This document shows positions 14,653 through 62,551 of a stretch of DNA of 64,000 nucleotides, piece after piece. The notes below the pieces were generated by a model, which was given only the letters and a program-made list of their open reading frames with translations, made no database searches and was not told the DNA's origin. The position numbers and the translations under genes were made by a program. This DNA is from a plasmid: sequence record NZ_CP069608.1, one strand, 5' to 3'. Within the stretch, counting starts at the first letter, position 1, and every line of letters starts with the position of its first letter.

Positions 14653-17343
14653 TTATTCTTTCATTTTTAATATTCGAAGACTATTTAAGATAACGAGTAA
14701 GGCGGCTCCTGTATCACTGAGGACAGCAATCCAAAGCGTTAACCAACCAGGGAAAATAAATACTAAAGCAATTACTTTGATAATAATCGAAAACCAAATG
14801 TTTTGTTTGATAACCGTCAATGCTTTTCGACTTAATTTCATGGTATGAGGTAGCTTTTCTAAGTTATCCGCCATCAATACAATATCTGCTGTCTCCATAG
14901 CTGTGTCTGTACCTGCACCACCCATTGCAATTCCAAGGTCTGCTGTCGCCAATGCAGGGGCATCATTAATGCCGTCTCCAACCATAGCTGTTTTATAACC
15001 TTCGCTTTGTAACTGCTTGATTGCTGTTACTTTATCTTCAGGTAGAAGGTCTGCAAAATAGCGATTTACACCTGACTGAGAGGCAATCATTTTTGCTGTA
15101 CCTTCATTATCGCCTGTTAACATGACAATTTGTTCAATTCCATTTTGTTTAAGGCTATCTAAAGCTGATATCGTTGTTTTTCTGATGATATCAGCTACTC
15201 CTACAATTCCTAACACTTCTTCTTTTGTTCCCACAATAATAATGGTTTTTCCTTCAGTTTGAAGCTTTTCAATATGTGTTAAAGAATTAGATAATGGTGT
15301 TCCTATATCTGAGAATAAATTTGCATTCCCAGCATAATAGATAGTTCCATCAATTGTTGCTTGCACACCTTTACCTGTTATACTTTTAAAATTTGAACCT
15401 TCTAAAGAAGTAATATCTTGATTATCAGCATGGGCAACAATTGCTCGTGCAATTGGATGATTTGAATACTCTTCTAACGTTTTAGTGATGGATAGAAGCT
15501 GTTCTTCTGTAGAAGTATAAGGAATTACGTTTGAAACGGCTGGTTTACCTTCCGTAAGCGTACCAGTCTTATCAAAAGCAATTGCGCTTATAGCTCCTGC
15601 TTTTTCTAAGAATGTTCCACCTTTTATAAGGACACCATTCTTAGCCGCATTACCAATAGCTGATACAATAGCCACTGGCGTAGAAATAACCAACGCACAA
15701 GGACATGCTACTACTAATAATTCAAGCCCTTTGTAGAACCAGTCACCCCATGATCCACCGAATAAAGGAGGGACCACCATCACTAATAAAGCTAGGATAA
15801 AAACAATAGGTGTATAAATCGTTGCAAATTTATCGACAAATGCTTGAGTTGGAGCTTTCTTTTCTTGAGCTTCTTCAACCAAGTGAATAATTTTAGAAAT
15901 GGTCGTGTCTTCTACCAGTTTTGTCACTTTGATTTCTAATGAACCACTCTCATTAATTGTTCCAGCATAAACAGTATCGCCAATTTCTTTATCAACTGGA
16001 ATCGATTCACCAGTAATAGGGGCTTGATTAATACTAGATTCTCCTTTTACTACTTCTCCATCTAAAGGAATTCGATCTCCCGGTTTGACCACAATGATAT
16101 TTCCTATAGATACTTCTTCTACGGCTTTTTTTAGCAATTGGTCACCTTGTTTTACCCAAGCTTCAGGAGGAGCTAAATCCATTAAGTTTCGTATCGAATT
16201 CCTTGTTTGTTCGATGGACCTAGTTTGTAATGCTACTCCTAGGGCAAATAGCCATACAACTGTAGCACCTTCGAGCCATTCACCAATAATAGCAGCTCCA
16301 AGCGCTGCAACGGTCATTAATACATTCATATCTAATGAACGACTTTTAACAGCATAAAAAGCACTTTTAGCAGGCTTATATCCACTAATGACCATAGCTA
16401 CTGCATACATAATGTTATTAATAAAAGGAGAAACCCCTGTATAAGAGCCGATGAAACCTAACGCGATAAGAATTCCTGAAAAAATAATAGGTCCATTTTT
16501 TCCTTTATTATGATTTGTTTCGACAGCTTTTCTATTATTAGTTAGTAAAGTCGCGGTATATCCTGCTTTAGAGACTTCCTTAATAATTTCTTCTACATCA
16601 TTATCATGGTCAATCTGTGCTTTTCCCGTTGAAAAGTTCACACTGACATCTTTAACAGCAGGTACAGTCTTTAAATGATTAACAATTGTGTTCGCACAAG
16701 CAGCACAATCCATTCCTTCAATCAAATAAGTTTTCATTCGCTTATTTTGATTGATTGGCTCAATACTAAAACCTAGTTTCTCAACTCGGTTTGGGATAGG
16801 GGAAAAAGCCAATTGGTTGTTTGCTACTACTTGCAATTTTCCTGTGCTGTAATTTACTTTTACATCTTGTATATCGTCTAAAGTTCTTAGACTTTTTTCA
16901 ATTGTAGCAGCACAAGCTGGACAATCCATTCCAAACACTCGATATTCGCTTTTTTCTCCAGTTCCATTTGTAACAAGTTCTTTGTCTTCAGAAGCATTAC
17001 TGTCACTGCTACAACAACTTGACTTATGTTGTAGATTTTCTTCTTTGGTTAAGGCAACACTATCTGAACTGCAGCAACTATCTAGCTTTACATTGTTTGA
17101 TGAAGCATTTGAAGCATTACTGCTACAACAATTTGATTGTGGTTCTTCATGTTTTTCCTCAACTGCTGAGGAGTTATTTGAACTACAACAGCTCGATTTC
17201 TTCTGGAGATTTTCCTCTTTTATTAAAGGAATAATATTTGAGCTACAGCAACTATCGCTTTTCACTTCATCTTTTAGCTTATTTGAAGGATTGCTACTGC
17301 AACAACTCTTATTTGATTCATCTTGTACATTTTTAGGTGCCAT
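14653..17343 (-). CDS. cadA: Cd/Zn/Pb-type heavy-metal P1B ATPase (CadA-like) with two HMA domains and an N-terminal 6x CCSS(N/D) cysteine-repeat extension
   Basis: GMDCPACAATIEKSL and GMDCAACANTIVNHL HMA motifs; CPC; DKTGTLT; GDGINDAP. Start set at MAPKNV with GAGGAG RBS. Overlaps the cadC stop. Confidence 0.9.
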   Translation of the reverse strand: MAPKNVQDESNKSCCSSNPSNKLKDEVKSDSCCSSNIIPLIKEENLQKKSSCCSSNNSSAVEEKHEEPQSNCCSSNASNASSNNVKLDSCCSSDSVALTKEENLQHKSSCCSSDSNASEDKELVTNGTGEKSEYRVFGMDCPACAATIEKSLRTLDDIQDVKVNYSTGKLQVVANNQLAFSPIPNRVEKLGFSIEPINQNKRMKTYLIEGMDCAACANTIVNHLKTVPAVKDVSVNFSTGKAQIDHDNDVEEIIKEVSKAGYTATLLTNNRKAVETNHNKGKNGPIIFSGILIALGFIGSYTGVSPFINNIMYAVAMVISGYKPAKSAFYAVKSRSLDMNVLMTVAALGAAIIGEWLEGATVVWLFALGVALQTRSIEQTRNSIRNLMDLAPPEAWVKQGDQLLKKAVEEVSIGNIIVVKPGDRIPLDGEVVKGESSINQAPITGESIPVDKEIGDTVYAGTINESGSLEIKVTKLVEDTTISKIIHLVEEAQEKKAPTQAFVDKFATIYTPIVFILALLVMVVPPLFGGSWGDWFYKGLELLVVACPCALVISTPVAIVSAIGNAAKNGVLIKGGTFLEKAGAISAIAFDKTGTLTEGKPAVSNVIPYTSTEEQLLSITKTLEEYSNHPIARAIVAHADNQDITSLEGSNFKSITGKGVQATIDGTIYYAGNANLFSDIGTPLSNSLTHIEKLQTEGKTIIIVGTKEEVLGIVGVADIIRKTTISALDSLKQNGIEQIVMLTGDNEGTAKMIASQSGVNRYFADLLPEDKVTAIKQLQSEGYKTAMVGDGINDAPALATADLGIAMGGAGTDTAMETADIVLMADNLEKLPHTMKLSRKALTVIKQNIWFSIIIKVIALVFIFPGWLTLWIAVLSDTGAALLVILNSLRILKMKE

Positions 17344-17374
17344 TTCTTCCAACTCCTCATATAGTAAGAAAAGC

Positions 17375-17734
17375 TTAAAGCGTAATTTCTTCCTTCTCAG
17401 TAAACATGACTTCAATCAACTGCTTAATATGTTCATCATTCAAAGAATAGAAAGCTAGTTTTCCTTCTTTACGGTAGCTTGCAATTCCCATATTACGAAG
17501 AAGTCTCAAATGATGAGAAGCTGTTGCTACTGTAGATCCAACAATATTAGCTACGTCACAAACACATAATTCTTCCCCCTTATACAAAGCAAGGACAATC
17601 TTCAATCTTGTTTCATCTGCTAAAGCTTTTAGGGTTTTTGTTACATCTTGAGCTTCCTTAACATCTATAGAAGACTTAATACGATTAACTTTTTCTTCGT
17701 TATAACAATAAATATCGCAGCGATCTTTTGCCAT
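17375..17734 (-). CDS. cadC: ArsR/SmtB-family Cd(II)/Pb(II)/Zn(II)-responsive repressor CadC
   Basis: MAKDRCDIYCYNEEKVNRI...ELCVCDVANIVGSTVATASHHLRLL closely matches CadC of pI258; AAGGAGG RBS. Confidence 0.85.
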   Translation of the reverse strand: MAKDRCDIYCYNEEKVNRIKSSIDVKEAQDVTKTLKALADETRLKIVLALYKGEELCVCDVANIVGSTVATASHHLRLLRNMGIASYRKEGKLAFYSLNDEHIKQLIEVMFTEKEEITL

Positions 17735-17759
17735 AATTTCCTCCTTATATTCAAACATT

Positions 17760-17819
17760 CAAATGTGTATTTGTTTATAATATATGCCATTTTTTAAAAA
17801 TGTTCAAATGTTTATTTGA
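17760..17819 (-). promoter_or_regulatory. cadC promoter region with two CadC-type operator dyads (CAAAT-gtgt-ATTTG at 17760-17773; TCAAAT-gttt-ATTTGA at 17804-17819)
   Basis: Dyads seen in sequence; resemble the TCAAATAAATATTTGA-type CadC operator. Confidence 0.5.
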
Positions 17820-17921
17820 TTATTTTAATTATATTTTTAAACTAGCACTAAATTACCGATAAAAAAGCATATGTTGGATATTAGGGGATAGTTTAAGGTT
17901 GATAGCAAAAGGGGGAAAGAC

Positions 17922-18413: not shown

Positions 18414-19139
18414 ATGCACATAGAAATGAATTTATTATTCACTTTAGGTTCATTACTTGGCTTGTTAGTAGGCGGTGGCCTCCTTAAAATAGTGAGCTAT
18501 GTAGTTCAGGGAAGGATCCAGTTTATGTATGCCATTTGTGGAGGAATCTTATTAGGATTATTGTTATTTGATATCCTTCCCTCTACTTGGCATATATACG
18601 ACCTAAAAGGAGTACTATTGGGAATTGTTGCAGGATATATCGTAATGCTATGTATTGATCTCTTTTTGCATAAGAAAAATAGTGAAATTTCACCTTTACA
18701 AGCACTCATTTTATTAACAGTTGCTATATTCTTTCATAATGTAATTACTGGAATTACATTTGGTATAACCGATATACATGAATCAACTTCTGTATTTGTA
18801 GCCACCATTTTACACCAGGTCCCAGAGGGCATGGCGATCATGACTGTTCTTTCCGTAGCAAAAGTCCCTCAATTATTCTTCTTACTAATTGTAGCCTTCT
18901 TATCTCTATCCTTAGGTGGGAGTTTATTGATTGGAGAAAGCGTACAAGCTTCCTCACTTAAATTACAAGCTTTATCGACCGGGGGAGCAATCGGAACATT
19001 GTCCTTTGTTATCTTTCATGAAGTAATAGGCAAGGCTGTGATTCATTTCAGACGTCTACATGTATGGATGCTTATAGGCTTAGGAGTATTAATTATTTAC
19101 GTTTATCAGTATTCTCTTTCATTGTTTCACGGTCATTAA
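18414..19139 (+). CDS. ZIP-family (ZupT-like) metal cation transporter
   Basis: Eight hydrophobic segments; HNVITGITFG and HQVPEGMA motifs typical of ZIP/ZupT. Confidence 0.55.
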   Translation: MHIEMNLLFTLGSLLGLLVGGGLLKIVSYVVQGRIQFMYAICGGILLGLLLFDILPSTWHIYDLKGVLLGIVAGYIVMLCIDLFLHKKNSEISPLQALILLTVAIFFHNVITGITFGITDIHESTSVFVATILHQVPEGMAIMTVLSVAKVPQLFFLLIVAFLSLSLGGSLLIGESVQASSLKLQALSTGGAIGTLSFVIFHEVIGKAVIHFRRLHVWMLIGLGVLIIYVYQYSLSLFHGH

Positions 19140-19252: not shown

Positions 19253-19786
19253 ATGTTTCAGTTGCATAAAAGGTCTCTATTTGTACTAATCATGTTAGTC
19301 GTTAGTTTTATCTCGGTGGCTTGTTCAAACACAAACGAAGAAAAGGTAAGCAAAGAAACAACAAGCCAAACAAAGAAAGACCACGAACAGCACTCAGAAG
19401 TCGCTAGTGGTGATATTAGAGAAGAAACAACAAGTAATGGAGTTTTACCTGAATTTTTAAAAGATAAATCGGAAGATATGCAAGTCATTTATGCAGATGC
19501 TGCACAAAACAAAGAGCTATTAGAGAATATTCCATGTTACTGTGGCTGTGGTGAATCTGCAGGGCACAAAAATAACTATGATTGCTTCATCTATAAGAAT
19601 AAAGAAGATGGAAAGGTAGTATGGGATGACCATGGAACAAAATGTGGTGTTTGTCTCGAGATTGCAGCTCAGTCAGTTTCTGATTTGAAATCCGGCAAAT
19701 CAATTAAACAAATTCGTCAATCAATTGATGAAAAATATAAAAGTGGTTATGCTAAACCAACACCAACACCAACTCCAGAGGTTTAA
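19253..19786 (+). CDS. PCYCGC-motif lipoprotein (candidate metal-binding)
   Basis: Signal peptide + lipobox ISVAC; IPCYCGCGESAGHKNNYDCF...TKCGVCLEIA; C-terminal PTPTPTPEV. Confidence 0.7.
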   Translation: MFQLHKRSLFVLIMLVVSFISVACSNTNEEKVSKETTSQTKKDHEQHSEVASGDIREETTSNGVLPEFLKDKSEDMQVIYADAAQNKELLENIPCYCGCGESAGHKNNYDCFIYKNKEDGKVVWDDHGTKCGVCLEIAAQSVSDLKSGKSIKQIRQSIDEKYKSGYAKPTPTPTPEV

Positions 19787-20003: not shown

Positions 20004-21339
20004 TGGTTCATCACCAAAAGTTGTACTTGCACCTGTCATGAAAGTATGTTAGCTGTTTCTAGCCGAACCCGCAATGCAAAACGCTGGATATTTCTGTATC
20101 CGTATCCCCGACGTTTCATCAGCTTGATCTTGTTATTTGTTCCCTCCATTTTCCCATTTGAATAAGGGGATAAAATGCACGATATGATTTCGTCTGTTCG
20201 TTTGACGAGTGATTTTGCGATGGCGCGAACAGCAGAACAAGGACAAAACAAATACCGATGAACCCAGGCGTTCAAACGACGTTTCGCTTGTCGCTCGTTT
20301 TGGCTTTTGGATACATAACGAAAATGTTGAAGGGATTGATAGACAGCCTGCAAGGAATCGCTCTCTTTCTGCCACTCCCGCACCGTTTGGCGTTCCTCCT
20401 CGGTGAGCTTCTCGGGGCGCTGGGTCAATAAGCGGCAAACATACCGGACATGCCCATGTTTCTTGTTCCCTTTTCCGAAGGATTTGCGGCATCGATCCAA
20501 CGCTTCCGTAAACAATTGAATCACATGAAAATAATCGACCACATGCTTCGCTTCCGGACACGCCCCTTGAATCGCTTTTTTCATCGCTGGAGCCAAATCG
20601 CTCACGACATACTGAACAGAATCAGACACAGGAGCCAACACACGTCCAATGGCTTCCTCGTTCTTTCCTGCTTCAACGGCATACACTTCTCCCGTTTCGG
20701 CATCCATGATCGCCACTCCGTAATCATGCCCTTTTCGAAACGCAAACTCATCGACACAAACTGCCTTTGGTTGGATGTCATTCGATAGGAAGGAAGGGGC
20801 ATGGGTATAAAACCAACGTTCCACGGTCGTGTAAGGAAGCTTGAGCATACGAGCCACCGCCTGAATGGATGTTCCGATGCAAGATTGCGCCACCCATTGC
20901 TGAAACGCATCCGTCGCTACACTTCGAGGGGAAATTCCGGGATAAGACGTGCTGAATGTCATGCCACATGTACCACAACGTCTACGCTCCACAGGGAGTT
21001 CCACCCAAAAGATGCCGATCCGTTGAGCATACCCATGCATCCATTGCTTCTTTTTGCCTGTCATTTTGATTGTACGCTTCAAGCAGACAGGACATAATGG
21101 GCATTGTTCGGGTAGAGAAAGTTCGAAAATCCAACGTTCTTCTTCTTTTCGCACCTTTTGAATCAAAACATCTGGTAAATCGATGAGTTCTTTGATAAAC
21201 TGAGCGTACATGCGAATTTTCCTCCAATGGTTTGGTTTGGTCACCTTTACCATACAGGAAAATTCGCATTTTTTGTATCCTCTATTTTCCCTATGCATAC
21301 CTATCTTAAAATCTCAAGTACAACTTGTGGTGAAGAGCC
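20004..21339 (-). mobile_element. ISL3-family insertion sequence, intact, with terminal IRs and 8-bp target-site duplication AGTATTTT
   Basis: IRs GGTTCATCACCAAAAGTTGTACTTG (left) and GGCTCTTCACCACAAGTTGTACTTG (right, reverse complement). Direct repeat AGTATTTT at 19996-20003 and 21340-21347. Confidence 0.8.
20036..21211 (-). CDS. ISL3-family transposase
   Basis: Zn-finger-like N-terminus CPLCPVC; DDE region DEFAFRKGHDYGVAIMDAETGEV...; C-terminal ...SNGKMEGTNNKIKLMKRRGYGYRN. Confidence 0.85.
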   Translation of the reverse strand: MYAQFIKELIDLPDVLIQKVRKEEERWIFELSLPEQCPLCPVCLKRTIKMTGKKKQWMHGYAQRIGIFWVELPVERRRCGTCGMTFSTSYPGISPRSVATDAFQQWVAQSCIGTSIQAVARMLKLPYTTVERWFYTHAPSFLSNDIQPKAVCVDEFAFRKGHDYGVAIMDAETGEVYAVEAGKNEEAIGRVLAPVSDSVQYVVSDLAPAMKKAIQGACPEAKHVVDYFHVIQLFTEALDRCRKSFGKGNKKHGHVRYVCRLLTQRPEKLTEEERQTVREWQKESDSLQAVYQSLQHFRYVSKSQNERQAKRRLNAWVHRYLFCPCSAVRAIAKSLVKRTDEIISCILSPYSNGKMEGTNNKIKLMKRRGYGYRNIQRFALRVRLETANILS

Positions 21340-21510
21340 AGTATTTTATTATAAATAAATGAGAATAAACATTTTGAAGAAGTCTTTACGGTTTTTAAGT
21401 AAAGACTTCTTTCTTTTATAAAATTGTGAACAAACAGTGACATAGCTTGCTGTTTGGACTGCTACTATTTATGATTATAGAGCTAGTAATAATAATATAC
21501 GGAAGAAAGG

Positions 21511-22008
21511 ATGCTTAGATTGTTTAAAAAACTTTTATTTTTATCAGCAGTATTAATAATCACTACTATATGGGTTATTTTACCAAATGCGAATATAGGA
21601 AAAGATGCTCAAATAAATAATAACACAGCAGATGCTAGTGAGGATGTCAGGGAAGAGACAGAGAGCCAAACCTTACCTACATTTTTGAGTGAGAAACCTG
21701 ACAATATAAAAATAGTCTATACAGAAGTTTCGAAAAACAAAAAGTTATTGGAGAATATTCCATGTTATTGTGGCAGTGGGGAAGCAGAAGGTCATAAGAG
21801 TAACTACGATTGTTTTATTAAAGAGAACAAAGATAACGGTAGAGTAGTATGGGATGATCATGCAACAAAGTCTCGAATCTGTCCAAATATTGCGTCTCAA
21901 GCGATTGTAGACTATAACGATGGAAAATCAATCAAGGAAATTCGCCAGGGTGTTGAGGATAAGTTTAAAGAAGGATACCCTAATCCTACTCCAACTCCTG
22001 AAGTATGA
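21511..22008 (+). CDS. PCYCGC-family paralog (degenerate: CYCGSG, second Cys pair lost)
   Basis: IPCYCGSGEAEGHKSNYDCF...; C-terminal PNPTPTPEV; N-terminal signal/TM. Confidence 0.65.
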   Translation: MLRLFKKLLFLSAVLIITTIWVILPNANIGKDAQINNNTADASEDVREETESQTLPTFLSEKPDNIKIVYTEVSKNKKLLENIPCYCGSGEAEGHKSNYDCFIKENKDNGRVVWDDHATKSRICPNIASQAIVDYNDGKSIKEIRQGVEDKFKEGYPNPTPTPEV

Positions 22009-22049
22009 TTCTAAATTGAGCAACAATCGTAAAATTATACACACTAAAA

Positions 22050-22085
22050 AGCCAGCAGATACTATTAATCGTCTGGCTTTTTCAA
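22050..22085 (+). terminator. Hairpin AAAAGCCAG...CTGGCTTTTT after the PCYCGC paralog
   Basis: Seen in sequence. Confidence 0.5.
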
Positions 22086-22175
22086 TTAAGAACAAGTAGA
22101 ATTTTAAGAACAATATTAGGATTCTTCTCACCATCTTACCTAGAAGCAGCTACTATAGTGTGTTAACAAGGAATG

Positions 22176-22232
22176 TTGACACATTAATCTTGAAATGCAT
22201 ATAATCAATATATGAACAATTGTTCATATATT
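22176..22232 (+). promoter_or_regulatory. Sigma-A-type promoter (TTGACA-18-TATAAT) followed by a perfect 26-bp palindrome AATATATGAACAA|TTGTTCATATATT; ArsR/SmtB (CzrA-type) operator
   Basis: Seen in sequence; near-identical promoter/operator at 24279-24346. Confidence 0.6.
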
Positions 22233-22338
22233 CACCTTAATGAAAACATGTTCAGGTAGATTACAGTTAACAACTATACTACGTATATTAAAAGTTTAAC
22301 TATTTAAAATCCTGAATATGCATATAGGAGGGAGAAAA

Positions 22339-22680
22339 ATGTCAGATTTTTTTAGACGTTTATTAGGTGATCATCATGACGACCATCACCGTCGACATGG
22401 GCATCACGGGGACCATCACGGGCATCACGATGACCATCACGGGCATCAGGATTATTATGAAGAGCCTCGTCCATATCGATATGAGGACCCAAGAACTACA
22501 CCAAGGCCTTCAAATATGATTGTTTGTCGGCGCTGTAATGCTTCTAATGATGTGAGTCATAAGTTTTGTTATGAATGTGGAGATCGGCTTCAAAAAGATC
22601 CTGTACTTTGTCCAAAATGCAATAATACTGTAATGGCACACGCAAAATTTTGTCAGCAGTGTGGAACATCTATTAGATGA
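22339..22680 (+). CDS. His-rich protein with C-terminal double zinc-ribbon
   Basis: MSDFFRRLLGDHHDDHHRRHGHHGDHHGHHDDHHGHQDYY... then CRRC...CYEC...CPKC...CQQC; GGAGGG RBS. Confidence 0.6.
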   Translation: MSDFFRRLLGDHHDDHHRRHGHHGDHHGHHDDHHGHQDYYEEPRPYRYEDPRTTPRPSNMIVCRRCNASNDVSHKFCYECGDRLQKDPVLCPKCNNTVMAHAKFCQQCGTSIR

Positions 22681-22682
22681 AC

Positions 22683-22725
22683 AAAACCTTCTCTTCTTAC
22701 AACCTGAAGAGAAGGTTTTGTCATT
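22683..22725 (+). terminator. Perfect hairpin AAAACCTTCTCTTC-ttacaacctg-AAGAGAAGGTTTT
   Basis: Seen in sequence. Confidence 0.6.
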
Positions 22726-22958
22726 AAAAGCTAATTTTATTTACCTATACTATAAAGAGCACATATTTATTTTGTTTTTAAAACATCAAAACAACTACTC
22801 ATTAGGCTTTCCATATATTAAATTAAAGATGCGAAATTAACCTTTCACGCACTTTACAGCTTGATTTAGAAACCCGAAGTCTTGTGTTATGGTTTCAAAG
22901 AGACAAATCTGAAACAGATGCTAAATTCTCATTAGCATAAAGTAGAGAAATTGTATTT

Positions 22959-23951
22959 TTATTCTTTGCCATTCCAGTTCTTATCAATGTCAAACATTTC
23001 TTCTCCATGGGCATGTTGTTCGTCCTCTACTTGAATTGTCACGTGACCAATTTGAAACTTTTTCTCTAGAACTTGTTCAATGTTACGAATAATGTTCATA
23101 GTTTCTCGAACTGTGATACTTCCATCTACTTCAATATGACTACTCATCGCGTTTTTATTCGAAGTTAAACTCCAAATATGAAGATCATGAATGTCTTTAA
23201 CATCTGGTATAGATTTAATTTCTGTTTCTACTTCTGAAAATTCGATTCCAGCAGGGGTGCCTTCCATTAATACAACATAGGTTTCTTTTATGATACGCCA
23301 CGCCCCAACTGCCACAAGTAGGGCAATTAAAATACTTAAAATAGGATCTAGAATGTACCACTGTGTAAAATACATAATTATACCTGCTACAATAACCCCT
23401 GCTGAAGCTGCAGCATCACCCATTACGTGAAGCATGGCACTTCGAATGTTTACGTTGTCAGCTTGATTTTTCATACCTAGACCTATGTAAAGGTTTACAA
23501 CAAGTCCAATCCCTGCGGTAATAAATAAAACAGTTCCTTGAACGGGTTCGGGATTTGTAATACGTTTATAAGCTTCTCCACCAATAAAGATGGCTATTCC
23601 AATTAATGTTAATGCATTTAAAAGCGCGGCAAGTATCGTAATACGGTGATAGCCGTATGTCATAGAAGGCGAAGGGGGATTCAACGACATTCGAATGGCT
23701 AGCCAGGCCACAATTAGTGAGGCCACGTCGGTTAACATGTGCCCAGCATCACTTAATAAAGCCAAGCTATTTGCTAAAAAACCGCCTATCACTTCTGCAA
23801 TTAATACTAATAAGCCTAAAAAGATTGCTTTTTTTAATTTGTCTTGTGCAACGTGAACATGTCCCATTCCATGAGCATGTTCATCATGGTTATCATTATG
23901 TTGATGAACATGCCCGTTATTTTCTAGAATTTTCTCCATCATATCCTCCAT
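22959..23951 (-). CDS. czcD: Cation diffusion facilitator (CzcD-like Zn/Co/Cd efflux) with His-rich N- and C-termini
   Basis: CDF TM signature SLALLSDAGHMLTD ... HVMGDAAASAGVI; His-rich tails. Confidence 0.85.
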   Translation of the reverse strand: MEDMMEKILENNGHVHQHNDNHDEHAHGMGHVHVAQDKLKKAIFLGLLVLIAEVIGGFLANSLALLSDAGHMLTDVASLIVAWLAIRMSLNPPSPSMTYGYHRITILAALLNALTLIGIAIFIGGEAYKRITNPEPVQGTVLFITAGIGLVVNLYIGLGMKNQADNVNIRSAMLHVMGDAAASAGVIVAGIIMYFTQWYILDPILSILIALLVAVGAWRIIKETYVVLMEGTPAGIEFSEVETEIKSIPDVKDIHDLHIWSLTSNKNAMSSHIEVDGSITVRETMNIIRNIEQVLEKKFQIGHVTIQVEDEQHAHGEEMFDIDKNWNGKE

Positions 23952-24278
23952 GTAACATATTATTGTTATTAAAAATCGAGATGATTTTATAACTTCTTTC
24001 AGTTAATTCATTAATTTTTAATAAAGAAGCGCACATTTTGAACATTATCTTTATTTTTTATCCCCACTTTATATCTAGAACATATTTTAGATAATGATTG
24101 GAAACTTTCTCCGTTAACTACGTTAATGCTAGTATTTGTTTGTTCAGAAAACTTTATGCCGTGCTAGGAAGCGTTCTTGAGTACAAGATAAAAACAGTGA
24201 TCTTACACTTTATGGATTAAGAGCTGAATATTAAGTTCTTAAGAAAGGAAATATTATTAATTGTTTAGTAAATATCCA

Positions 24279-24346
24279 TTGACACATTAGAAGTATGCTA
24301 CATATAATGAAAACAAACATATGAACATATGAGTTATTGTTCATAT
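24279..24346 (+). promoter_or_regulatory. Sigma-A-type promoter (TTGACA-18-TATAAT) + ArsR-type operator (half-sites ATATGAACA / TGTTCATAT with 10-nt spacer; overlapping CATATG-AA-CATATG dyad)
   Basis: Seen in sequence; paralog of the 22176-22232 site. Confidence 0.55.
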
Positions 24347-24364
24347 ATTCAAGGATGTGAAAAT

Positions 24365-24766
24365 ATGATAACAAATAAAGAAACTAAAACAGTGGCGACA
24401 ATTCAGGAAACGTGCAGTCAAACGGTTATTCACGAAGAAGTCGTAGCAAAAGTAAAAGAGACAACACCAGATCAAGAAGTCTTAACAAATGTCGCAGAGC
24501 TATTTAAGGTATTAGGCGATCGAACAAGAACACGTATTCTCCATGCTTTATTTGAAACAGAAATGTGTGTATGTGACTTGGCTTATCTATTAGAAATGAC
24601 ACAATCATCCATTTCTCATCAGTTACGTGTCTTGAAGCAAGCTAAGCTGGTTAAAAATCGTAAAGCAGGAAAAGTAGTATATTACTCACTTGCTGATCAT
24701 CATGTGATTCAAATTTTCAATCAGGCATTCCAACATGTCACTGAAGATAGCATAAAAGAAGAATAG
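24365..24766 (+). CDS. czrA: ArsR/SmtB-family metalloregulator (CzrA/CadC-like; CVC alpha3 motif and DHH...H alpha5 motif)
   Basis: DRTRTRILHALFETEMCVCDLAYLLEMTQSSISHQLRVLKQAKLV...LADHHVIQIFNQAFQHV; start set at MITNK. Confidence 0.75.
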   Translation: MITNKETKTVATIQETCSQTVIHEEVVAKVKETTPDQEVLTNVAELFKVLGDRTRTRILHALFETEMCVCDLAYLLEMTQSSISHQLRVLKQAKLVKNRKAGKVVYYSLADHHVIQIFNQAFQHVTEDSIKEE

Positions 24767-24779
24767 AGGCGAGGAATCG

Positions 24780-27167
24780 ATGGAAGAACAAAAGCAAAAA
24801 GTGAAACGGGAACTGTTACTTGAAGGATTAGATTGTGCCAACTGTGCTCTTAAAATTGAAAATGGAGTAAAGGGTATACAAGGAGTATCTTCATGTTCTG
24901 TTAACTTTGTTACAAAGACTCTTACCTTAGAGACTGATAATACTCAAGAAGGAACAGTTATATTAGAGGCAAAGAAAAAAGTGAAAACGTTAGAACCTCA
25001 TATCAATATACAAGAAAAAGGGGCTTCTAAAAGAACTGCTGCTGTAAGAACTTTTTATCTAAAAGGATTAGATTGTGCAAATTGCGCAGCCAAAATTGAA
25101 CAAGGAGTAGGAAAACTAGAAGGAGTAACATCTTCTACTGTTGATTTTGTTTCTAAAAAACTAATTATGGAAGCTTCTAACCCAGATCAACTAGATCAAT
25201 TAGAAAATGAAGCTACAAAGATTGTGAAGAAGTTAGAGCCCGAAGTAGAAGTTATATCAGAGTCTCATAAACACGATGACGGTCATGATCATGGTCATGG
25301 TCACGACCATGATCACGGAAGTGAAAATACTAAAAAAATGTTTGCACGATTAGGAATAGGTGCTGTGCTAGCCGGAATCGGAATGTTTGCTCCTGTTTCC
25401 GGAGTGGCAGAGCTTGGATTATTTCTCATTGCTTATCTCATTATAGGTGGAGATATCGTTTTACGAGCTGTTAAAAATATTCTAAGAGGGCAAGTCTTTG
25501 ATGAACATTTTCTTATGGCTTTAGCAACCATCGGAGCATTTGCTATTAAACAGTACCCTGAAGGGGTTGCAGTTATGCTCTTCTACCAAGTGGGAGAATT
25601 ATTCCAAAGCATTGCTGTAAATCGTTCTCGTAAGTCTATTAGCGCATTGATGGATATTCGACCAGATTCTGCGAATGTAAAACGTGGAAGTGAATTCATA
25701 AAAGTTTCTCCAGAAGACGTAAATATAGGCGATATCATCTTGATTAAACCTGGCGAAAAAGTTCCACTAGATGGAAAAGTATTAGTTGGTACTTCAATGA
25801 TGGATACATCAGCTTTAACGGGAGAATCTGTACCACGAGAAGTAGAAGTCGGAAGCGATGTGCTTAGTGGGTTTATTAATAAGAATGGTGTCTTAACCGT
25901 AGAAGTAACAAAAGGATTTGAAGAATCAACCGTATCTAAAATTTTAGAGTTAGTTCAAAATGCAAGTAGTCGAAAAGCACCAACAGAAAACTTCATTACA
26001 AAATTTGCTCGTTATTACACTCCAGTTGTAGTAATTGTGGCAACAGCATTAGCTGTTTTACCACCGTTATTGATTAGTGGTGCTACTTTTTCAGATTGGA
26101 TTTATCGTGCACTAGTATTCTTAGTTATTTCTTGTCCTTGTGCACTTGTCGTTTCAATTCCATTAGGATTCTTTGGAGGAATAGGTGCTGCATCCAAAAC
26201 AGGTATTCTTGTAAAAGGAAGTAACTATTTAGAAGCGTTAAACGACGTTAAATATGTTGTATTTGATAAAACTGGTACATTGACCAAAGGTGTATTTAAA
26301 GTAACAAGTATTCGTCCTAAGTTTAACTTTACAAAAGAACAAGTTTTGGAATATGCAGCTTTAGCTGAAGTTCATTCTAATCATCCAATTGCGGAGTCTA
26401 TCCGCAAGGCATATGGAAAGAAAATAAATGAAGATGCAATACAGGAATATAATGAAATTTCAGGACATGGTATTTCGGTTACAGTAGATGGAAAAGAAAT
26501 TGCAGCTGGAAATGCTAAGCTTATGAACAAAGAACAAATCTCTTTTCAACGACCAGATGAAATTGGAACCATTGTTCATGTCGCTGTAGATAAACAATAC
26601 GCTGGATACATTGTTATTTCAGATGAAGTGAAAGAGGATTCTAATCAAGCCATTCAAGCCTTAAAAGCATTAGGCATTAAAAAGACAGTCATGCTAACTG
26701 GAGATGCGAAAGCAGTTGGAGATTCTGTGGGTAAACAGTTAGGGTTGGATGAAGTTCATGCAGAGTTGTTACCTCAACATAAGGTAGAGAAAATCGAGAA
26801 TTTAGATAAAGAAAAATCTCCAAAAGAAAAAATTATATTTGTAGGCGATGGTATTAACGATACACCTGTTTTAGCACGAGCAGATGTTGGAATTGCCATG
26901 GGGGGACTAGGGTCAGATGCAGCCATTGAGGCAGCAGACATTGTCATTATGACAGATGAGCCTTCTAAAATCCCAACAGCTATTGGTATCGCTAAACGTA
27001 CTCGTCGCATCGTATGGCAAAATATTTTATTTGCCTTGGGAGTTAAAGTTATCTTCTTACTATTAGGTGCATTTGGAATTGCAACCATGTGGGAAGCTGT
27101 CTTTTCAGATGTGGGTGTAACGTTGCTAGCTGTTTTAAATGCCATGCGTGTATTACGTTTGAAATAA
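24780..27167 (+). CDS. Zn/Cd-type heavy-metal P1B ATPase (CadA/ZntA-like), two HMA domains + His-rich linker
   Basis: GLDCANCALKIE, GLDCANCAAKIE; HKHDDGHDHGHGHDHDHG; SCPCALVVS; DKTGTLT; GDGINDTP. Confidence 0.9.
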   Translation: MEEQKQKVKRELLLEGLDCANCALKIENGVKGIQGVSSCSVNFVTKTLTLETDNTQEGTVILEAKKKVKTLEPHINIQEKGASKRTAAVRTFYLKGLDCANCAAKIEQGVGKLEGVTSSTVDFVSKKLIMEASNPDQLDQLENEATKIVKKLEPEVEVISESHKHDDGHDHGHGHDHDHGSENTKKMFARLGIGAVLAGIGMFAPVSGVAELGLFLIAYLIIGGDIVLRAVKNILRGQVFDEHFLMALATIGAFAIKQYPEGVAVMLFYQVGELFQSIAVNRSRKSISALMDIRPDSANVKRGSEFIKVSPEDVNIGDIILIKPGEKVPLDGKVLVGTSMMDTSALTGESVPREVEVGSDVLSGFINKNGVLTVEVTKGFEESTVSKILELVQNASSRKAPTENFITKFARYYTPVVVIVATALAVLPPLLISGATFSDWIYRALVFLVISCPCALVVSIPLGFFGGIGAASKTGILVKGSNYLEALNDVKYVVFDKTGTLTKGVFKVTSIRPKFNFTKEQVLEYAALAEVHSNHPIAESIRKAYGKKINEDAIQEYNEISGHGISVTVDGKEIAAGNAKLMNKEQISFQRPDEIGTIVHVAVDKQYAGYIVISDEVKEDSNQAIQALKALGIKKTVMLTGDAKAVGDSVGKQLGLDEVHAELLPQHKVEKIENLDKEKSPKEKIIFVGDGINDTPVLARADVGIAMGGLGSDAAIEAADIVIMTDEPSKIPTAIGIAKRTRRIVWQNILFALGVKVIFLLLGAFGIATMWEAVFSDVGVTLLAVLNAMRVLRLK

Positions 27168-27175
27168 ATAACAAA

Positions 27176-27215
27176 TAGAGCTGACCAATTTTATACTGGT
27201 CAGCTTTATTTGTTA
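27176..27215 (+). terminator. Hairpin AGCTGACCA-attttatac-TGGTCAGCT + T-rich tail
   Basis: Seen in sequence. Confidence 0.6.
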
Positions 27216-27767
27216 TTTATAACACCTGTAATTAAGAATTTTCTACTACAATCTTTGTCATATTTTGACCACTTTTTCTTCATAACTATTTTATATAATT
27301 GAATATGATCCATGTTGAAAATTAACTACCTATGACTATGAGAAAAATCATTTGATAAAACACGAAGAGAGGCCTTAATCAATGTTAACGCAAAAAATTA
27401 TCATACTGCTATTCATTATAGTATTCACCCTTGCAGCTTTTTCTACTTATCATCTGTTTGTCACTGATTCATATTTTAACCTAAAAACAGCTTTTCGTTT
27501 ACTGAATCATATTCCTTTTAGTTTGACAAACATATTTATTTTAATATTCGGTGTCTTAGGTGGTGTAGTGTTCTTTCTTAAACGATTTAAGGTCAAGAAA
27601 TAAATACTGTAATAAGCGTATTTATGAGGCTTAAAAATGCACCTAAAGTCTTCAAAGGAAGCTTAAAATATAGGAAATAAAAAGTTATGAGCTGTTTTAA
27701 ATTACATGAGGGACATTAATGTAATGTCCCTCACCTTTTTAGTCTTACATTATTTATAACTAATTTA

Positions 27768-40112: not shown

Positions 40113-41051
40113 TTAATGTTCTTCAATATCACACTTAGTTTCCGGACTATCTATCTGTATAGTAGTATGTTTTATTTTAAATTGTTTCTCTAATATTTCT
40201 TTAGCATTGTTCATAACCATAGAACTACTTTTCAAGTCATTAACTACGATATGGCAGCTGAGAGAAGGGACATCTGATGAAATGGCCCAAATATGGAGAT
40301 CATGTACTTCTAGTGTATTATTTATAGCAACAAGAGCCTCCCGTACCTGAGTGACATCAATGTGAGAGGGAGCTCCCTCCATTAAAATATTAATGGAATC
40401 TCGAGTTACCCTAAAAGCGCTAATAATAATAAGAATAGCCACTAGTACACTCGCTATTGGATCAGCTAAGGTCCATCCGAAAAACATAATTAATAAAGCT
40501 GCAATTATAGCACCGACAGAACCCAGTAAATCCCCAATTACATGAAGAAAAGCACTCCTTACATTAAGATTTTCCGATTTATCACCTTTCATTAGGATAT
40601 AGGCAGCAATAATATTGACGACTAATCCAATAGAAGCAATAATAATCATTCCTGAACTCTGAACTTCAGGTGGCTGTGAAAAGCGTTTATATGATTCCCA
40701 GAATATATACAAAGAAATCACGATTAGGGTAAGACCATTAATAAATGCAGCTAAAACCTCAAACCTTTTATAACCAAAAGTCTTAAATTCAGTCGCTTTT
40801 CGTTCTCCAAAAGTCATCGCTAAATAACTTAACCCCAAAGCTCCAGCATCACTTAACATGTGACCCGCATCGGAAATTAGAGCAAGGCTGTTTGTCATAA
40901 AACCACCAATAGCTTCAATAACCATATATGTGGTGATGATAAAAAAAGAAAGTTTTAACGCCTGTTTATTAGCATTTTTACCATGATTATGCGAATGACC
41001 ATGTGAATGTTTATGATTATGTGAATTCTCTTTTGAATTCATGTACTTCAT
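40113..41051 (-). CDS. Cation diffusion facilitator (CzcD-like), His-rich N-terminus
   Basis: SHNHKHSHGHSHNHG; SLALISDAGHMLSD; HVIGDLLGSVGAI. Confidence 0.85.
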   Translation of the reverse strand: MKYMNSKENSHNHKHSHGHSHNHGKNANKQALKLSFFIITTYMVIEAIGGFMTNSLALISDAGHMLSDAGALGLSYLAMTFGERKATEFKTFGYKRFEVLAAFINGLTLIVISLYIFWESYKRFSQPPEVQSSGMIIIASIGLVVNIIAAYILMKGDKSENLNVRSAFLHVIGDLLGSVGAIIAALLIMFFGWTLADPIASVLVAILIIISAFRVTRDSINILMEGAPSHIDVTQVREALVAINNTLEVHDLHIWAISSDVPSLSCHIVVNDLKSSSMVMNNAKEILEKQFKIKHTTIQIDSPETKCDIEEH

Positions 41052-41437
41052 CTCCTATTTTTTTGTTTCTAATTAATAAATTAGTATTTATATTCTACAA
41101 TTAGCCCATAAATAAACCATAAAACCTTTTGTTAAATTATTAAGTTGCATTTTTTCACATTCCAAAAAGTAAAAAAATCTATCCTCTTTAATTGGTAAGT
41201 AGATAAGATTAACCCCAAAATTGACTTTATCAATTATCTATAATTAGATTCCTTTCTCCTATCCGTGCTTAGATAATAATAAGTGCTTTTGAAGATGTGT
41301 TTGGACATCTTATTTTTTCATATATGAAAACTTTTAGCTTGTTCTATGTATTCGAGATTGTACATTTTATTTAGAACGCATAGAAGATAGAGTGAAGTCT
41401 TTCATACCCTAGTCTTCTTACTTTAATTAATAATGTT

Positions 41438-46907: not shown

Positions 46908-47281
46908 ATATAAAAACCCTTTCTATGAATTTACTATATATAAATATATTATAAAATATGGAAAAATTATAGAGTAAAAATCATTAAATTGGCCATTACA
47001 TAATAATAAAAATTCACATAGTCATATTTTCTATAAATGCAAAAAAATCTTCAAAAATGCTTTTAATCATGTAAATATGAAGAAATTACATGATATTTGT
47101 TACTGATTTATGAAATTATTAAGTCTATTTTTCGAATATTGATTAAATGAGGAAAAAAATTTTGTGTTACAAGCCCCTGACTTTTACGACTTTTGATAGT
47201 ATATGTACGTAAATATTAAATCTGTTTTGCCAATAGTAATTTGTTTTATGATTGGTAGTTTAGAAAGGAAGGTGAACAAAT

Positions 47282-48265
47282 ATGTTCAAAAGATTAACAT
47301 TACATAATCTATTCAAACCGTTGTTAACCCTTATTTTAGGAGTAGGTTTATTGGTTTTAAGTGGTTGTAGTAACCTGGTCATCTTAGACCCTAAAGGACC
47401 AGTGGCTAAGATTCAAAGTGATCTTATTATGCTATCAATTCTCTGGATGTTATTAATTATTATCGTTGTTTACGTCTTATTTACCTGGGTTGTTATTAAA
47501 TATCGTAATCGTCCTGGATTTAAAGATAAAGACTATCAACCTAACATGCATGGTAACACAAAGTTGGAGATTATATGGACCATAATTCCAATTATAATTG
47601 TTAGCGCTTTATCGATTCCGACAGTACAAGCATTGTATGAACTGGAAAAACCACCAAAGTCAACACGTGATAAAGACCCAATCGTTATTTACGCTACTTC
47701 AGTTGACTGGAAATGGATATTTAGTTATCCAGAAGAAAATATTGAAACTGTAAATTATTTAAATATCCCAGAAGATCATCCAATTCTTTTCAAAATTACT
47801 TCCGCGGATTCTATGTCTTCCTTGTGGATTCCACAACTCGGTGGTCAAAAGTATGGAATGGCTGGGATGGAAAATAAGTTGTATCTTCAAGCTGATGAAC
47901 CTGGACTCTACAAGGGTAGAAACTCCAACTTTACAGGGGAAGGTTTTGCAAATCAAACCTTTACTGTTTTAGCCCAAAAAGAAAAAGATTATAAGAATTG
48001 GGTAAAAGACACTCAACAAAATGCACCGAAATTAACTGAAAAACAGTATGAGAAATTAATGATGCCTGAAGTAGCTAAGAAGATGACTTTTTCATCTACT
48101 CACTTAAATATCGTAGACCATGCAACATCTTCGGAATATGCATTAAGAGTTCGTGAAAAATATGATGTTTCAGTTAATCCTGAAAAAAAACAAAATACAA
48201 ATGATGATAGCCAAGTAGAAGGCGAATCAAGCTCTAGTTCCCAGCATGGATCGCACTCTAACTAA
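47282..48265 (+). CDS. qoxA: Cytochrome aa3 quinol oxidase subunit II
   Basis: Lipoprotein signal (LSGCS); two TM; size and order as B. subtilis QoxA; lacks the CuA Cys pair, consistent with a quinol oxidase. Confidence 0.85.
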
Positions 48266-61633: not shown

Positions 61634-61941
61634 TTAATGTTTGAGATAGAGGAAATCTAAGTGAATATATTTTTGTTTATGGTTCGCATGTTCTATAGCC
61701 TGGTTAAGCAAATAAATAACATGCATATCATCATATGAATAATGGGAATTAACCCCTCGTCTTCTAAAATTGATAAGTTGTAAGGATTTTAAAAATCGTA
61801 ACTGGTGAGATACAGTAAATTGCATCAGAGGAAGCTCATGTGAAATTTCGTTAACTCTAGATAATAAGTGTAAAATCCAAATCTGTGTCGGATCAGATAA
61901 TGCTTTAAAAGTCTGAGAAACACTGTAAAGAGTTTTTTCAT
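61634..61941 (-). pseudogene. ArsR-family HTH regulator interrupted by a +1/-1 frameshift in an A6 run right after the start codon
   Basis: ATGAAAAAACTC: the ATG frame stops after 38 codons. With one extra A the ORF reads [63 protein letters not shown]..., a complete ArsR-type HTH. Confidence 0.5.
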
Positions 61942-62551
61942 CTAGATCAAATTATAGAAATGATTCAACTTTATTTTCTTGTGTATCACTTATATATCTA
62001 CTCCTTTATTTAAAAAAATCTGACTATTGTTTAAAAGTTTAAAGAAATTAGTCTTGTTATAAACTGTTTATTTAGGACATAAAGCGTTTTCTATCTTTAG
62101 TTTAAATTACTCTCTTTGGAAACCAGTAGATTCTCTATCGCATAAATTCTTTTTTTAAAACTTACAACACTAAGGGAAAGCAACAATTCTTATATATCAT
62201 TATTATATAAAATTGAGTGAAATAAAAAAACCAAGGGTTTCTTAGAATAGCCCTTGGCTGTTTGCTAATCCCTATATTTTCTTATTATAAAAATTAATAG
62301 TATTTTGTGTAAAAAACACTATTATGAATCTGTCTATACTCAAATGAGTATTTATGAGTAGATTTTTTATCATAGTTGGCTTTTTTGATGTCTAATATCA
62401 GTTTTAGTTATCATGGTAAGCTTATAATAAAAAATATAACTTTAAATATTTATTTAGTTGCTATTTCTGCTATAGACTCAGTAAAAACCTTCGATAAGCT
62501 CCTCAACATTTTCTCCATTAACAGATATCTTGTTATAGCCAAAGAATCAAG

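Follow-up and report, generated by a model that had tools for sequence, protein, structure and literature searches.

A His-rich double-zinc-ribbon gene behind the operator half-sites of an ArsR/SmtB-type regulator and P-type ATPase operon: a predicted shared metal-responsive regulon

Why should a gene for a small His-rich protein with two zinc ribbons carry the promoter and the operator half-sites of a metal-export operon? This question is raised by a plasmid stretch of 64,000 nucleotides (sequence record NZ_CP069608.1; "the window" below means this whole stretch), in which the His-rich gene (22339-22680) lies upstream of the genes for an ArsR-family regulator (24365-24766) and a Zn/Cd P-type ATPase. 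The preliminary description of this DNA, made from the letters alone, had placed the two transcription units in one metal-responsive regulon and had labelled the regulator czrA. As far as sequence goes, this proposal is supported: the operator of the His-rich gene (O1) is conserved, and genes of the same family lie inside arsR-ATPase or arsR-cation diffusion facilitator (CDF) operons elsewhere. Membership of the His-rich gene in a metal-responsive regulon with the regulator/ATPase operon is thus a well supported prediction. Taken as a whole, we think it likely that one SmtB/CzrA-type repressor (24365-24766) controls two units and that the His-rich protein is an accessory of efflux.

Reading positions 21900-24900 confirmed all the coordinates given earlier for the TTGACA-18-TATAAT promoter and the 26-bp palindrome upstream of the His-rich gene. 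The same -35 and -10 boxes and the same half-sites were indeed present at the promoter of the regulator/ATPase operon (operator O2), and both patterns proved to be confined to these two places in the window. A perfect TTGACA-N16-18-TATAAT arrangement occurred only at 22176 and 24279 (0.17 occurrences expected), and ATATGAACA-N(0-14)-TGTTCATAT gave two matches, compared with 0.00 expected from 100 shuffles. The exact 9-mers ATATGAACA and TGTTCATAT, searched on both strands of the 64 kb, were found solely as the four half-sites of O1 and O2. When 26-mers were scored against the 24 specified positions of the O1 palindrome, O1 itself (22207-22232) reached 24/24 and the best element of O2 (24324-24349) reached 20/24, while no other 26-mer in the window exceeded 18. 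Recurrence of the half-sites by chance is excluded.

The half-sites of O2, ATATGAACA at 24319-24327 and TGTTCATAT at 24338-24346, are separated by 10 nt. The two operators had been contrasted by this spacing (0 versus 10 nt); the positions hold, but the difference is better described as one between a perfect 12-2-12 inverted repeat and a conserved three-hexamer site. In O2 the outer hexamers, H1 and H3, are perfect, and H2 and H3 together form the imperfect 12-2-12 element that scored 20/24. Published 12-2-12 sites of ArsR/SmtB repressors have a TGAACA/TGTTCA core and are located at the promoter or a little beyond it, an Anabaena example being AATACCTGAACA-GA-TGTTCAAGTATT (PMC8790569). Judged by its layout, O1 is the canonical form of such an operator and O2 is a three-hexamer variant. 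The operators begin 1-8 nt past the perfect -10 boxes; since O1 starts only 1 nt after its -10 box, it would cover the predicted transcription start. Graded repression arising from the two operator architectures is plausible.

The locus was compared with that of Priestia megaterium (L002) and of two further assemblies (L001, and L040, which is GCA_025910025 and encodes an identical His-rich protein). The TTGACA-18-TATAAT promoter of the His-rich gene is kept in L001, L002, L040, L042 and L043. In the Priestia relatives the TGAACA and TGTTCA hexamers of O1 are invariant and the 2-nt spacer reads AT, AA (L001) or AG (L002), while in L002 both flanks are altered symmetrically (CATGAACA...TGTTCATG). 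Invariant hexamers, a variable spacer and a symmetric change of the flanks form the pattern expected of a dimer-binding site. The counterpart of O2 in L001 reads TGAACA-TA-TGAATT-AT-TGTTCA. Three-hexamer operators were also found at a Sporolactobacillus-type locus (L003, TGAACA-TA-TGAGCA-TA-CGTTCA), in three Sporolactobacillus genomes (L010-12, TGAACA-TA-TGATCA-TA-CGTTCA) and, in two copies, in Alicyclobacillus curvatus (L004, CP071184, TGAATA-TA-TGAGTA-TA-TGTTCA). In each case, over three genera, the operator stands directly after the -10 box of an arsR-led operon; on the evidence of these sites the three-hexamer layout is a conserved design and not the result of decay. The Alicyclobacillus copies belong to two inverted arsR-CDF-dzr cassettes (dzr denoting the double-zinc-ribbon gene) that face each other across a 490-bp spacer (L004 2615-6315), each with its own TATAAT and three-hexamer operator.

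Both O1 and O2 are followed by a weaker core, starting 20 nt after the last hexamer (Table). The one next to O1 (22241-22254) is one of only two cores matching at 11/12 positions in the whole window; it is identical in L001 and carries a single change in L002. The two elements, 22241-22254 and 24358-24371, could be auxiliary operators, as in the paired smtB sites, or the trace of a promoter duplication. Another candidate, TGAACAAATATGTTCA at 47273-47288 (TGAACA-N4-TGTTCA), overlaps the start codon of an open reading frame (ORF, 47282-48265), is without AT-rich flanks and was judged a chance match. The operator hexamers are also carried by an inverted repeat, TGAACATG-N14-CATGTTCA, at 23854-23883, within the part of the CDF gene that codes for its His-rich N-terminus; this repeat probably arises from D-E-H / H-V-H codons.

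The protein best placed to use O1 and O2 is the regulator encoded at 24365-24766, which matched Pfam HTH_5 (PF01022, 58 bits, cutoff 22) and the NF033788 metalloregulator model (102 bits, cutoff 55). Among solved structures the best match was SmtB (1r1t, 4e-22), followed by CzrA (6e-17) and CadC (1e-16). The DHH...H..E residues of the regulator aligned with all four α5 ligands of SmtB, which we take to be D104/H106/H117/E120, and a CVC motif and an N-terminal Cys are also present. CzrA in the strict sense, of the S. aureus type, has α5 ligands only and no Cys ligands; the regulator, with its CVC and N-terminal Cys, does not qualify. The ArsR family, the CVC motif and the α5 ligands of the earlier description therefore stand, whereas the label czrA is only approximately right, SmtB being by sequence a nearer relative than CzrA of S. 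aureus. With the regulator of the Sporolactobacillus-type locus the protein shares 64% identity and the recognition helix, and the QS(S/A)ISHQLR helix is common to it and to the regulators of the other loci with TGAACA-type operators. This shared helix suggests that the 24365 regulator would be the natural partner of both O1 and O2.

The product of the gene behind O1 is composed of a short N-terminus with a predicted amphipathic character, a disordered His/Asp-rich stretch and a Cys4 + Cys4 double zinc ribbon. Pfam scans of the 113-residue protein returned zinc-ribbon families only (DZR PF12773, 41 bits, cutoff 27.3, residues 63-109), in agreement with the earlier view that it is neither a classical metallothionein nor a CopZ. 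No metallothionein family matched in Pfam and NCBIfam scans, and the 8 Cys all belong to zinc-ribbon CxxC pairs. Pfam likewise found no HMA domain, the structure model containing zinc ribbons only, and no PacL domain (DUF1490); nor does the protein have a hydrophobic segment. With an alignment of 31 sequences, AlphaFold modelled residues 59-113 as zinc ribbons (predicted local distance difference test, pLDDT, about 80-91 per 10-residue block) and residues 1-58 with low confidence. A Foldseek search of the PDB with this model returned generic zinc ribbons only, none of them at E <= 0.001. The ratio of non-synonymous to synonymous substitution rates (dN/dS) against Priestia orthologues, about 0.16-0.30, indicates that the gene is under purifying selection.

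The start at 22339 is favoured because all family members begin with M-(S/G)-x-F/L at the equivalent residue; an alternative ATG at 22318, chosen in one database gene call, was rejected on the ribosome-binding site and the family N-terminus. Directly after the stop codon lies a terminator-like hairpin (22676-22725) that none of 200 shuffled sequences equalled in folding. Upstream, a hairpin followed by a T-run (22048-22085), which was read from the sequence and not called by a simple terminator scan, probably insulates the gene as a transcription unit of its own. The ribosome-binding site, the terminator and this separating hairpin point to a monocistronic gene. An Rfam scan of the whole window found no RNA family, so that the leader of about 125 nt corresponds to no known riboswitch; within it, CAUGUUCAGG (22247-22256) is predicted to pair with CCUGAAUAUG (22311-22320) just upstream of the ribosome-binding site (fold z = -2.45). 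The HH(D/G) repeat tract (22370-22450) differs in length among close strains, giving proteins of 111, 113 and 117 residues (P0001-P0003), and the Priestia aryabhattai allele P0003 is frameshifted within the tract. These repeats look slippage-prone.

Among the roughly 2,100 hits of a full HMMER search were many small proteins that could be aligned with the 113-residue protein over its whole length. They define a family of about 85-135 residues, with the N-terminus M-(G/S)-x-(F/L)-x-(R/K)-(L/I)-(L/F)-G-G-H-H-G (MxFLxRLLGGHHG), a His/Gly/Asp-rich arm, a Pro-rich linker and a C-terminal DZR in which C-x2-C...F-C-x2-C-G occurs twice; the Cys are invariant (8/8) in 31 aligned members. The window protein tested as a member, its neighbours being a CDF transporter, an ArsR regulator and a P1B ATPase. 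The N-terminal 9-10 residues of the family, if helical, would be amphipathic, with hydrophobic moments of 0.34-0.71.

Nine members were chosen for taxonomic spread, their contexts being unknown beforehand, and in all nine (9/9) metal-export genes adjoin the family gene. In Sporolactobacillus (CDF<>dzr-arsR-P1B) and Sporomusa (dzr-arsR-P1B-P1B-CDF), dzr leads the arsR-ATPase operon, behind an operator of the same type as described above. It is the last gene of arsR-CDF-dzr in the two copies of Alicyclobacillus. In Burkholderia stabilis (merR<>P1B-dzr) it follows the ATPase gene after a 10-nt gap, under a CadR/ZntR-like (MerR-type) promoter with a 19-nt spacer. Association with czc genes was found in Roseateles and a JGI contig (dzr<>mgtC-czcE-czcI-czcCBA), in Legionella (czcCBA-x-dzr) and in Ralstonia (dzr-x-czcCBA), and Pseudomonas chlororaphis has mntP-dzr. 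In metagenomes a further 63 members were found; they fall into 41 sequence clusters, of which the 33 with at least 3 kb of flank were taken as informative. A P1B ATPase, CDF, CzcCBA or MerR gene was present within 6 kb in 20/33 of these, and within 700 nt in 18; typically a P1B gene is followed by dzr after a gap of 6-85 nt, or czcCBA(-mgtC) precedes dzr. One more cluster is a Tn3-type element in which dzr is next to a ZIP transporter. As controls we used the large generic zinc-ribbon proteins picked up in the same scans, and only 1/35 of them had a metal-export neighbour. Fisher's test gave p = 1e-7 when the metagenomic clusters were counted by themselves and p = 6e-10 when the nine sampled contexts were included. 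The Tn3-type element (L051 2157-6924, Ga0208123_100266) contains a Tn3-family transposase, a resolvase, dzr and the ZIP transporter in this order, an arrangement indicating that the family can travel on transposons with a metal transporter. In one lineage of high GC content (L069, L086 and L103; about 0.67-0.69), dzr stands between a pyridine-nucleotide disulphide oxidoreductase gene (glutathione/mercuric-reductase-like) and a PEP-synthase-like gene, and not next to an exporter. A profile search of genome contigs gave no Priestia species representative among the matches listed.

As the relatives of the His-rich gene adjoin metal-export genes in many unrelated bacteria, its product is probably an uncharacterised helper of metal detoxification, most likely an accessory of metal efflux. 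What we infer beyond this concerns repressor binding, the response to metal, metal binding by the His-rich arm and a role in buffering or hand-off, and the scheme would run as follows. Without metal, repressor dimers would sit on the TGAACA/TGTTCA operators just past the -10 boxes and block the two strongest promoters of the region. Occupation of the α5 site and/or the Cys site by Zn(II) or Cd(II), and possibly Co, would lower the affinity for DNA, and both units would be transcribed. The first unit, the autoregulated operon of the repressor and the Zn/Cd P1B-2 ATPase with its three-hexamer operator, would ensure export. The second, the monocistronic gene of the 113-residue cytoplasmic protein with its perfect 12-2-12 operator, would be kept tightly off until metal rises. 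The His-rich arm would then capture excess cytoplasmic Zn/Cd and either buffer it or hand it to exporters, the conserved N-terminus and the ribbons possibly providing the docking needed for hand-off.

The Table lists these elements together with the genes around them. The ISL3-family transposase gene is missing from the otherwise identical L040 locus, which points to a recent insertion. In L001 and L002 the terminator of the PCYCGC paralogue and the promoter of the His-rich gene stand about 400 bp further apart (L001:1050-1450); the additional stretch is absent from the window (junction 22089/22090) and from L040. The CDF gene (22959-23951) is located between the two operator-bearing promoters. 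The ATPase was assigned by TIGR01512 (ATPase-IB2_Cd, 549 bits, cutoff 313.5), the Cu-type model TIGR01511 remaining below its cutoff. The window is unusually rich in metal-homeostasis genes, and megablast of 21400-27300 against plasmids returned two short 73% matches in the ATPase only, so that the locus corresponds to no known plasmid.

Table. Positions of the promoters, operators, genes and other elements considered in the window
Feature	Position	Strand	Remarks
Promoter of the His-rich gene	22176-22205	+	TTGACA 22176-22181, 18-nt spacer, TATAAT 22200-22205; 12/12 consensus
Operator O1	22207-22232	.	perfect 26-bp palindrome AATATATGAACAATTGTTCATATATT; a 12-2-12 inverted repeat AATATATGAACA-AT-TGTTCATATATT
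Auxiliary imperfect core	22241-22254	.	TGAAAA-CA-TGTTCA, 11/12; starts 20 nt downstream of the right hexamer of O1 (22221)
Ribosome-binding site	22326-22331	+	AGGAGG, 7 nt before ATG 22339
His-rich double-zinc-ribbon protein	22339-22680	+	113 residues; 14 His + 10 Asp/Glu in the first 45 residues; Pro/Tyr/Arg-rich linker; two CxxC...CxxC ribbons
Intrinsic terminator-like hairpin	22676-22725	+	15-bp stem, directly after the stop codon; -26.8 kcal/mol, z = -8.3
Promoter of the regulator/ATPase operon	24279-24308	+	TTGACA 24279-24284, 18-nt spacer, TATAAT 24303-24308
Operator O2	24316-24349	.	H1 TGAACA (24322-27), TA, H2 TGAGTT (24330-35), AT, H3 TGTTCA (24338-43); ATAT flanks
Auxiliary weak core	24358-24371	.	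TGAAAA-TA-TGATAA, 9/12; overlaps the regulator start codon; starts 20 nt after H3
ArsR/SmtB-family metal-sensing repressor	24365-24766	+	133 residues; N-terminal Cys, CVC, α5 ligands D-H...H..E, recognition helix QSSISHQLR
P1B-2 (Zn/Cd/Pb-type) P-type ATPase	24780-27167	+	795 residues; two HMA domains, His-rich linker, CPC motif
CDF-family (CzcD/ZitB-like) cation efflux transporter	22959-23951	-	His-rich N-terminus; Pfam Cation_efflux + ZT_dimer; TIGR01297 294 bits
Hairpin + T-run after the PCYCGC paralogue	22048-22085	+	AAAAAGCCAGCAGATACTATTAATCGTCTGGCTTTTT; kept in L001/L002
PCYCGC paralogue	21511-22008	+	
ISL3-family transposase	20036-21298	-	between the two PCYCGC paralogues
PCYCGC protein	19253-19786	+	
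ZIP transporter	18414-19139	+	
Second metal operon: CadC-like ArsR (127 residues) + 920-residue P1B ATPase	14653-17758	-	followed by a methyltransferase and a CopD-like protein
Second CDF transporter	40116-41054	-	
Third ArsR-like ORF	61637-61951	-	no Pfam match at E <= 1e-4, no CVC motif

Several observations weigh against control of both units by one metal sensor and against the accessory role in efflux. Everything said here on regulation is read from DNA and protein sequences. No core of at least 10/12 was found upstream of the intervening CDF gene (23952-24278); this gene being without a recognisable operator, the regulon would not simply comprise every efflux gene of the locus. The frameshifted P0003 allele suggests that the His-rich gene is dispensable in some strains, AlphaFold yields no confident N-terminal helix, and 12/33 informative metagenomic clusters have no recognisable metal gene within 6 kb. 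The occurrence of the family with ATPases, CDFs, resistance-nodulation-division (RND) systems and MntP, four mechanistically different exporters, makes a chaperone dedicated to one pump less likely and a general role in the cytoplasm more so. The core of the O1 palindrome, GAAC-N4-GTTC, also resembles what we take to be the Bacillus LexA box.

This last resemblance opens the question of whether another protein uses 22207-22232, be it LexA, the CadC-like ArsR (17378-17758) or the ArsR-like ORF at 61637-61951, given that three ArsR-like proteins are encoded in the window. TGAACAATTGTTCA does contain GAAC-N4-GTTC, but the outer C/G of the presumed LexA consensus are T/A here, O2 is not a LexA-type box, and the surrounding genes point to metal export and not to DNA repair. 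The CadC-like paralogue, which has the CadC-type N-terminal Cys pair, carries a different recognition helix (SHHLR), and the promoter of its own operon (about 17759-17830) contains CATTTGAAyRTTT repeats, unlike the ATATGAACA sites. The extended half-sites ATATGAACA/TGTTCATAT recur only at the promoter of the 24365 regulator, and use of O1 by a different regulator is highly improbable. We also think it very unlikely that the shared operator is a by-product of local promoter duplication, which would make metal regulation a historical accident and leave the function of the protein unrelated to metals. The promoters do align beyond their functional boxes, having in common the 11-mer TTGACACATTA, TTGTTCATATATTCA and TGAAAAyATG 20 nt after H3, and these shared stretches, with the cores at the 20-nt offset, are consistent with one promoter having been duplicated from the other. 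Yet O1 evolves like a constrained site, and the family is found beside metal-export genes again and again in unrelated phyla, under other regulators and in other gene orders, which one duplication in Priestia cannot explain.

Under a further explanation the gene would be controlled by the repressor as we propose, and its product would be a regulator or adaptor, the ribbons binding nucleic acid or a partner and the His arm acting as a metal-sensing switch that may modulate exporters, the repressor or a protease. The strong conservation of MxFLxRLLGG and of the ribbon residues across phyla makes a specific interaction more likely than a plain sponge, the exporter classes and regulator types that go with the family are unrelated to one another, and the nearest zinc-ribbon folds in the PDB, although none was significant, are protein- or RNA-binding modules. 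However, domain scans of the protein gave no match to a DNA- or RNA-binding family, the His/Gly/Asp arm varies in length and sequence like a metal-binding region of low specificity, and nothing else indicates a regulatory partner; we consider a regulator or adaptor unlikely. Joint control of exporter and His-rich protein by the 24365 repressor, with the protein assisting efflux, is thus the explanation that we retain. Its extension to the whole family is more tentative: to us it seems less likely than not that His-rich DZR proteins, which are widespread in Firmicutes and Proteobacteria, are a missing class of cytoplasmic metallochaperones or efflux adaptors for Zn/Cd (and Co, Mn), in which the arm would collect metal while the N-terminus and the ribbons would dock at exporters (ZntA/CadA-type ATPases, CDFs, Czc) or at the membrane.

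Genes of this family have been wired repeatedly into Zn/Cd/Co export loci of Bacilli, Negativicutes, Burkholderiales, Legionella and Pseudomonas, controlled by ArsR- or MerR-type regulators or lying within czc clusters. Nothing relevant came up when the literature was searched for a His-rich zinc-ribbon protein with a characterised role in efflux; a genome paper gives the label 'zrb' to such a gene next to a czc cluster but does not discuss it (PMC7019866). Neither the family nor its wide association with metal-export genes seems to have been described. If its members buffer or deliver metal, they would supply a missing part of the handling of zinc and cadmium in bacteria, and thousands of ORFs annotated as 'zinc ribbon domain-containing' would receive a name. 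For delivery of Zn(II) to P1B-2 ATPases or CDFs, we know of no dedicated cytoplasmic carrier apart from mycobacterial PacL. With its monocistronic gene, perfect operator and strong promoter, the Priestia locus offers a convenient test bed. The same promoter and operator could be turned into a tightly controlled module for Zn/Cd-inducible expression or for biosensing, and the perfect 12-2-12 and three-hexamer operators form a natural comparison for the tuning of de-repression by architecture.

Several known systems share parts of this arrangement. The double zinc-ribbon domain itself (PF12773) is found in generic DZR proteins, such as SPFH-DZR and adenylate-cyclase/LuxR-type ATPases, but these are large and multidomain and are without the MxFLxRLLGGHHG motif or the His-rich arm. 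Hpn and Hpn-like of Helicobacter and the tails of SlyD and HypB are His-rich and of low complexity, and plausibly bind several divalent ions. They serve Ni and enzyme maturation, without zinc ribbons or linkage to Zn/Cd exporters, and the likeness is compositional only. A closer functional parallel is PacL1 (Rv3269) of M. tuberculosis, a small chaperone-like partner of the P1B ATPase CtpC that has a metal motif of the His/Asp type and is needed for zinc resistance (PMC9374683). Like several members of the present family it is encoded with a P1B ATPase, and it provides the best analogy for an exporter-linked accessory. This is an analogy and not membership: PacL1 has no homology to the His-rich DZR protein and consists of a transmembrane domain, Gln/Ala repeats and a short C-terminal motif, whereas the His-rich DZR family has no transmembrane segment, its His-rich arm being N-terminal and followed by two zinc ribbons.

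On the side of regulation, CzrA of S. aureus and B. subtilis and CadC, with czrB, czcD and cadA, likewise place an ArsR/SmtB repressor beside CDF and P1B-2 exporters, with α5 ligands and an autoregulated operon. S. aureus CzrA is without a Cys site, whereas the regulator described here has CVC and an N-terminal Cys. To our knowledge no published CzrA regulon includes a His-rich zinc-ribbon gene, and none was found in our literature searches on CzrA regulons. The SmtB-SmtA, BxmR and AztR/AzuR circuits of cyanobacteria rely on the same repressor family, SmtB being the best solved relative of the 24365 regulator. Their 12-2-12 operators are of the same TGAACA/TGTTCA type and stand at the promoter or shortly after it (PMC8790569), and they follow the same logic, in which one sensor lifts the repression of an exporter as well as of a small metal-binding protein of the cytoplasm. 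The present locus differs in its host, a Priestia-like member of the Bacillaceae, in its autoregulated operon with a three-hexamer operator, and in its small protein, which is a His-rich disordered arm with a double zinc ribbon and not a Cys-rich metallothionein. The principle that one ArsR/SmtB sensor switches on an exporter together with a small metal-binding protein is therefore already known from cyanobacteria; what seems new here is that the second target is a member of a widespread, unnamed and seemingly unstudied family.

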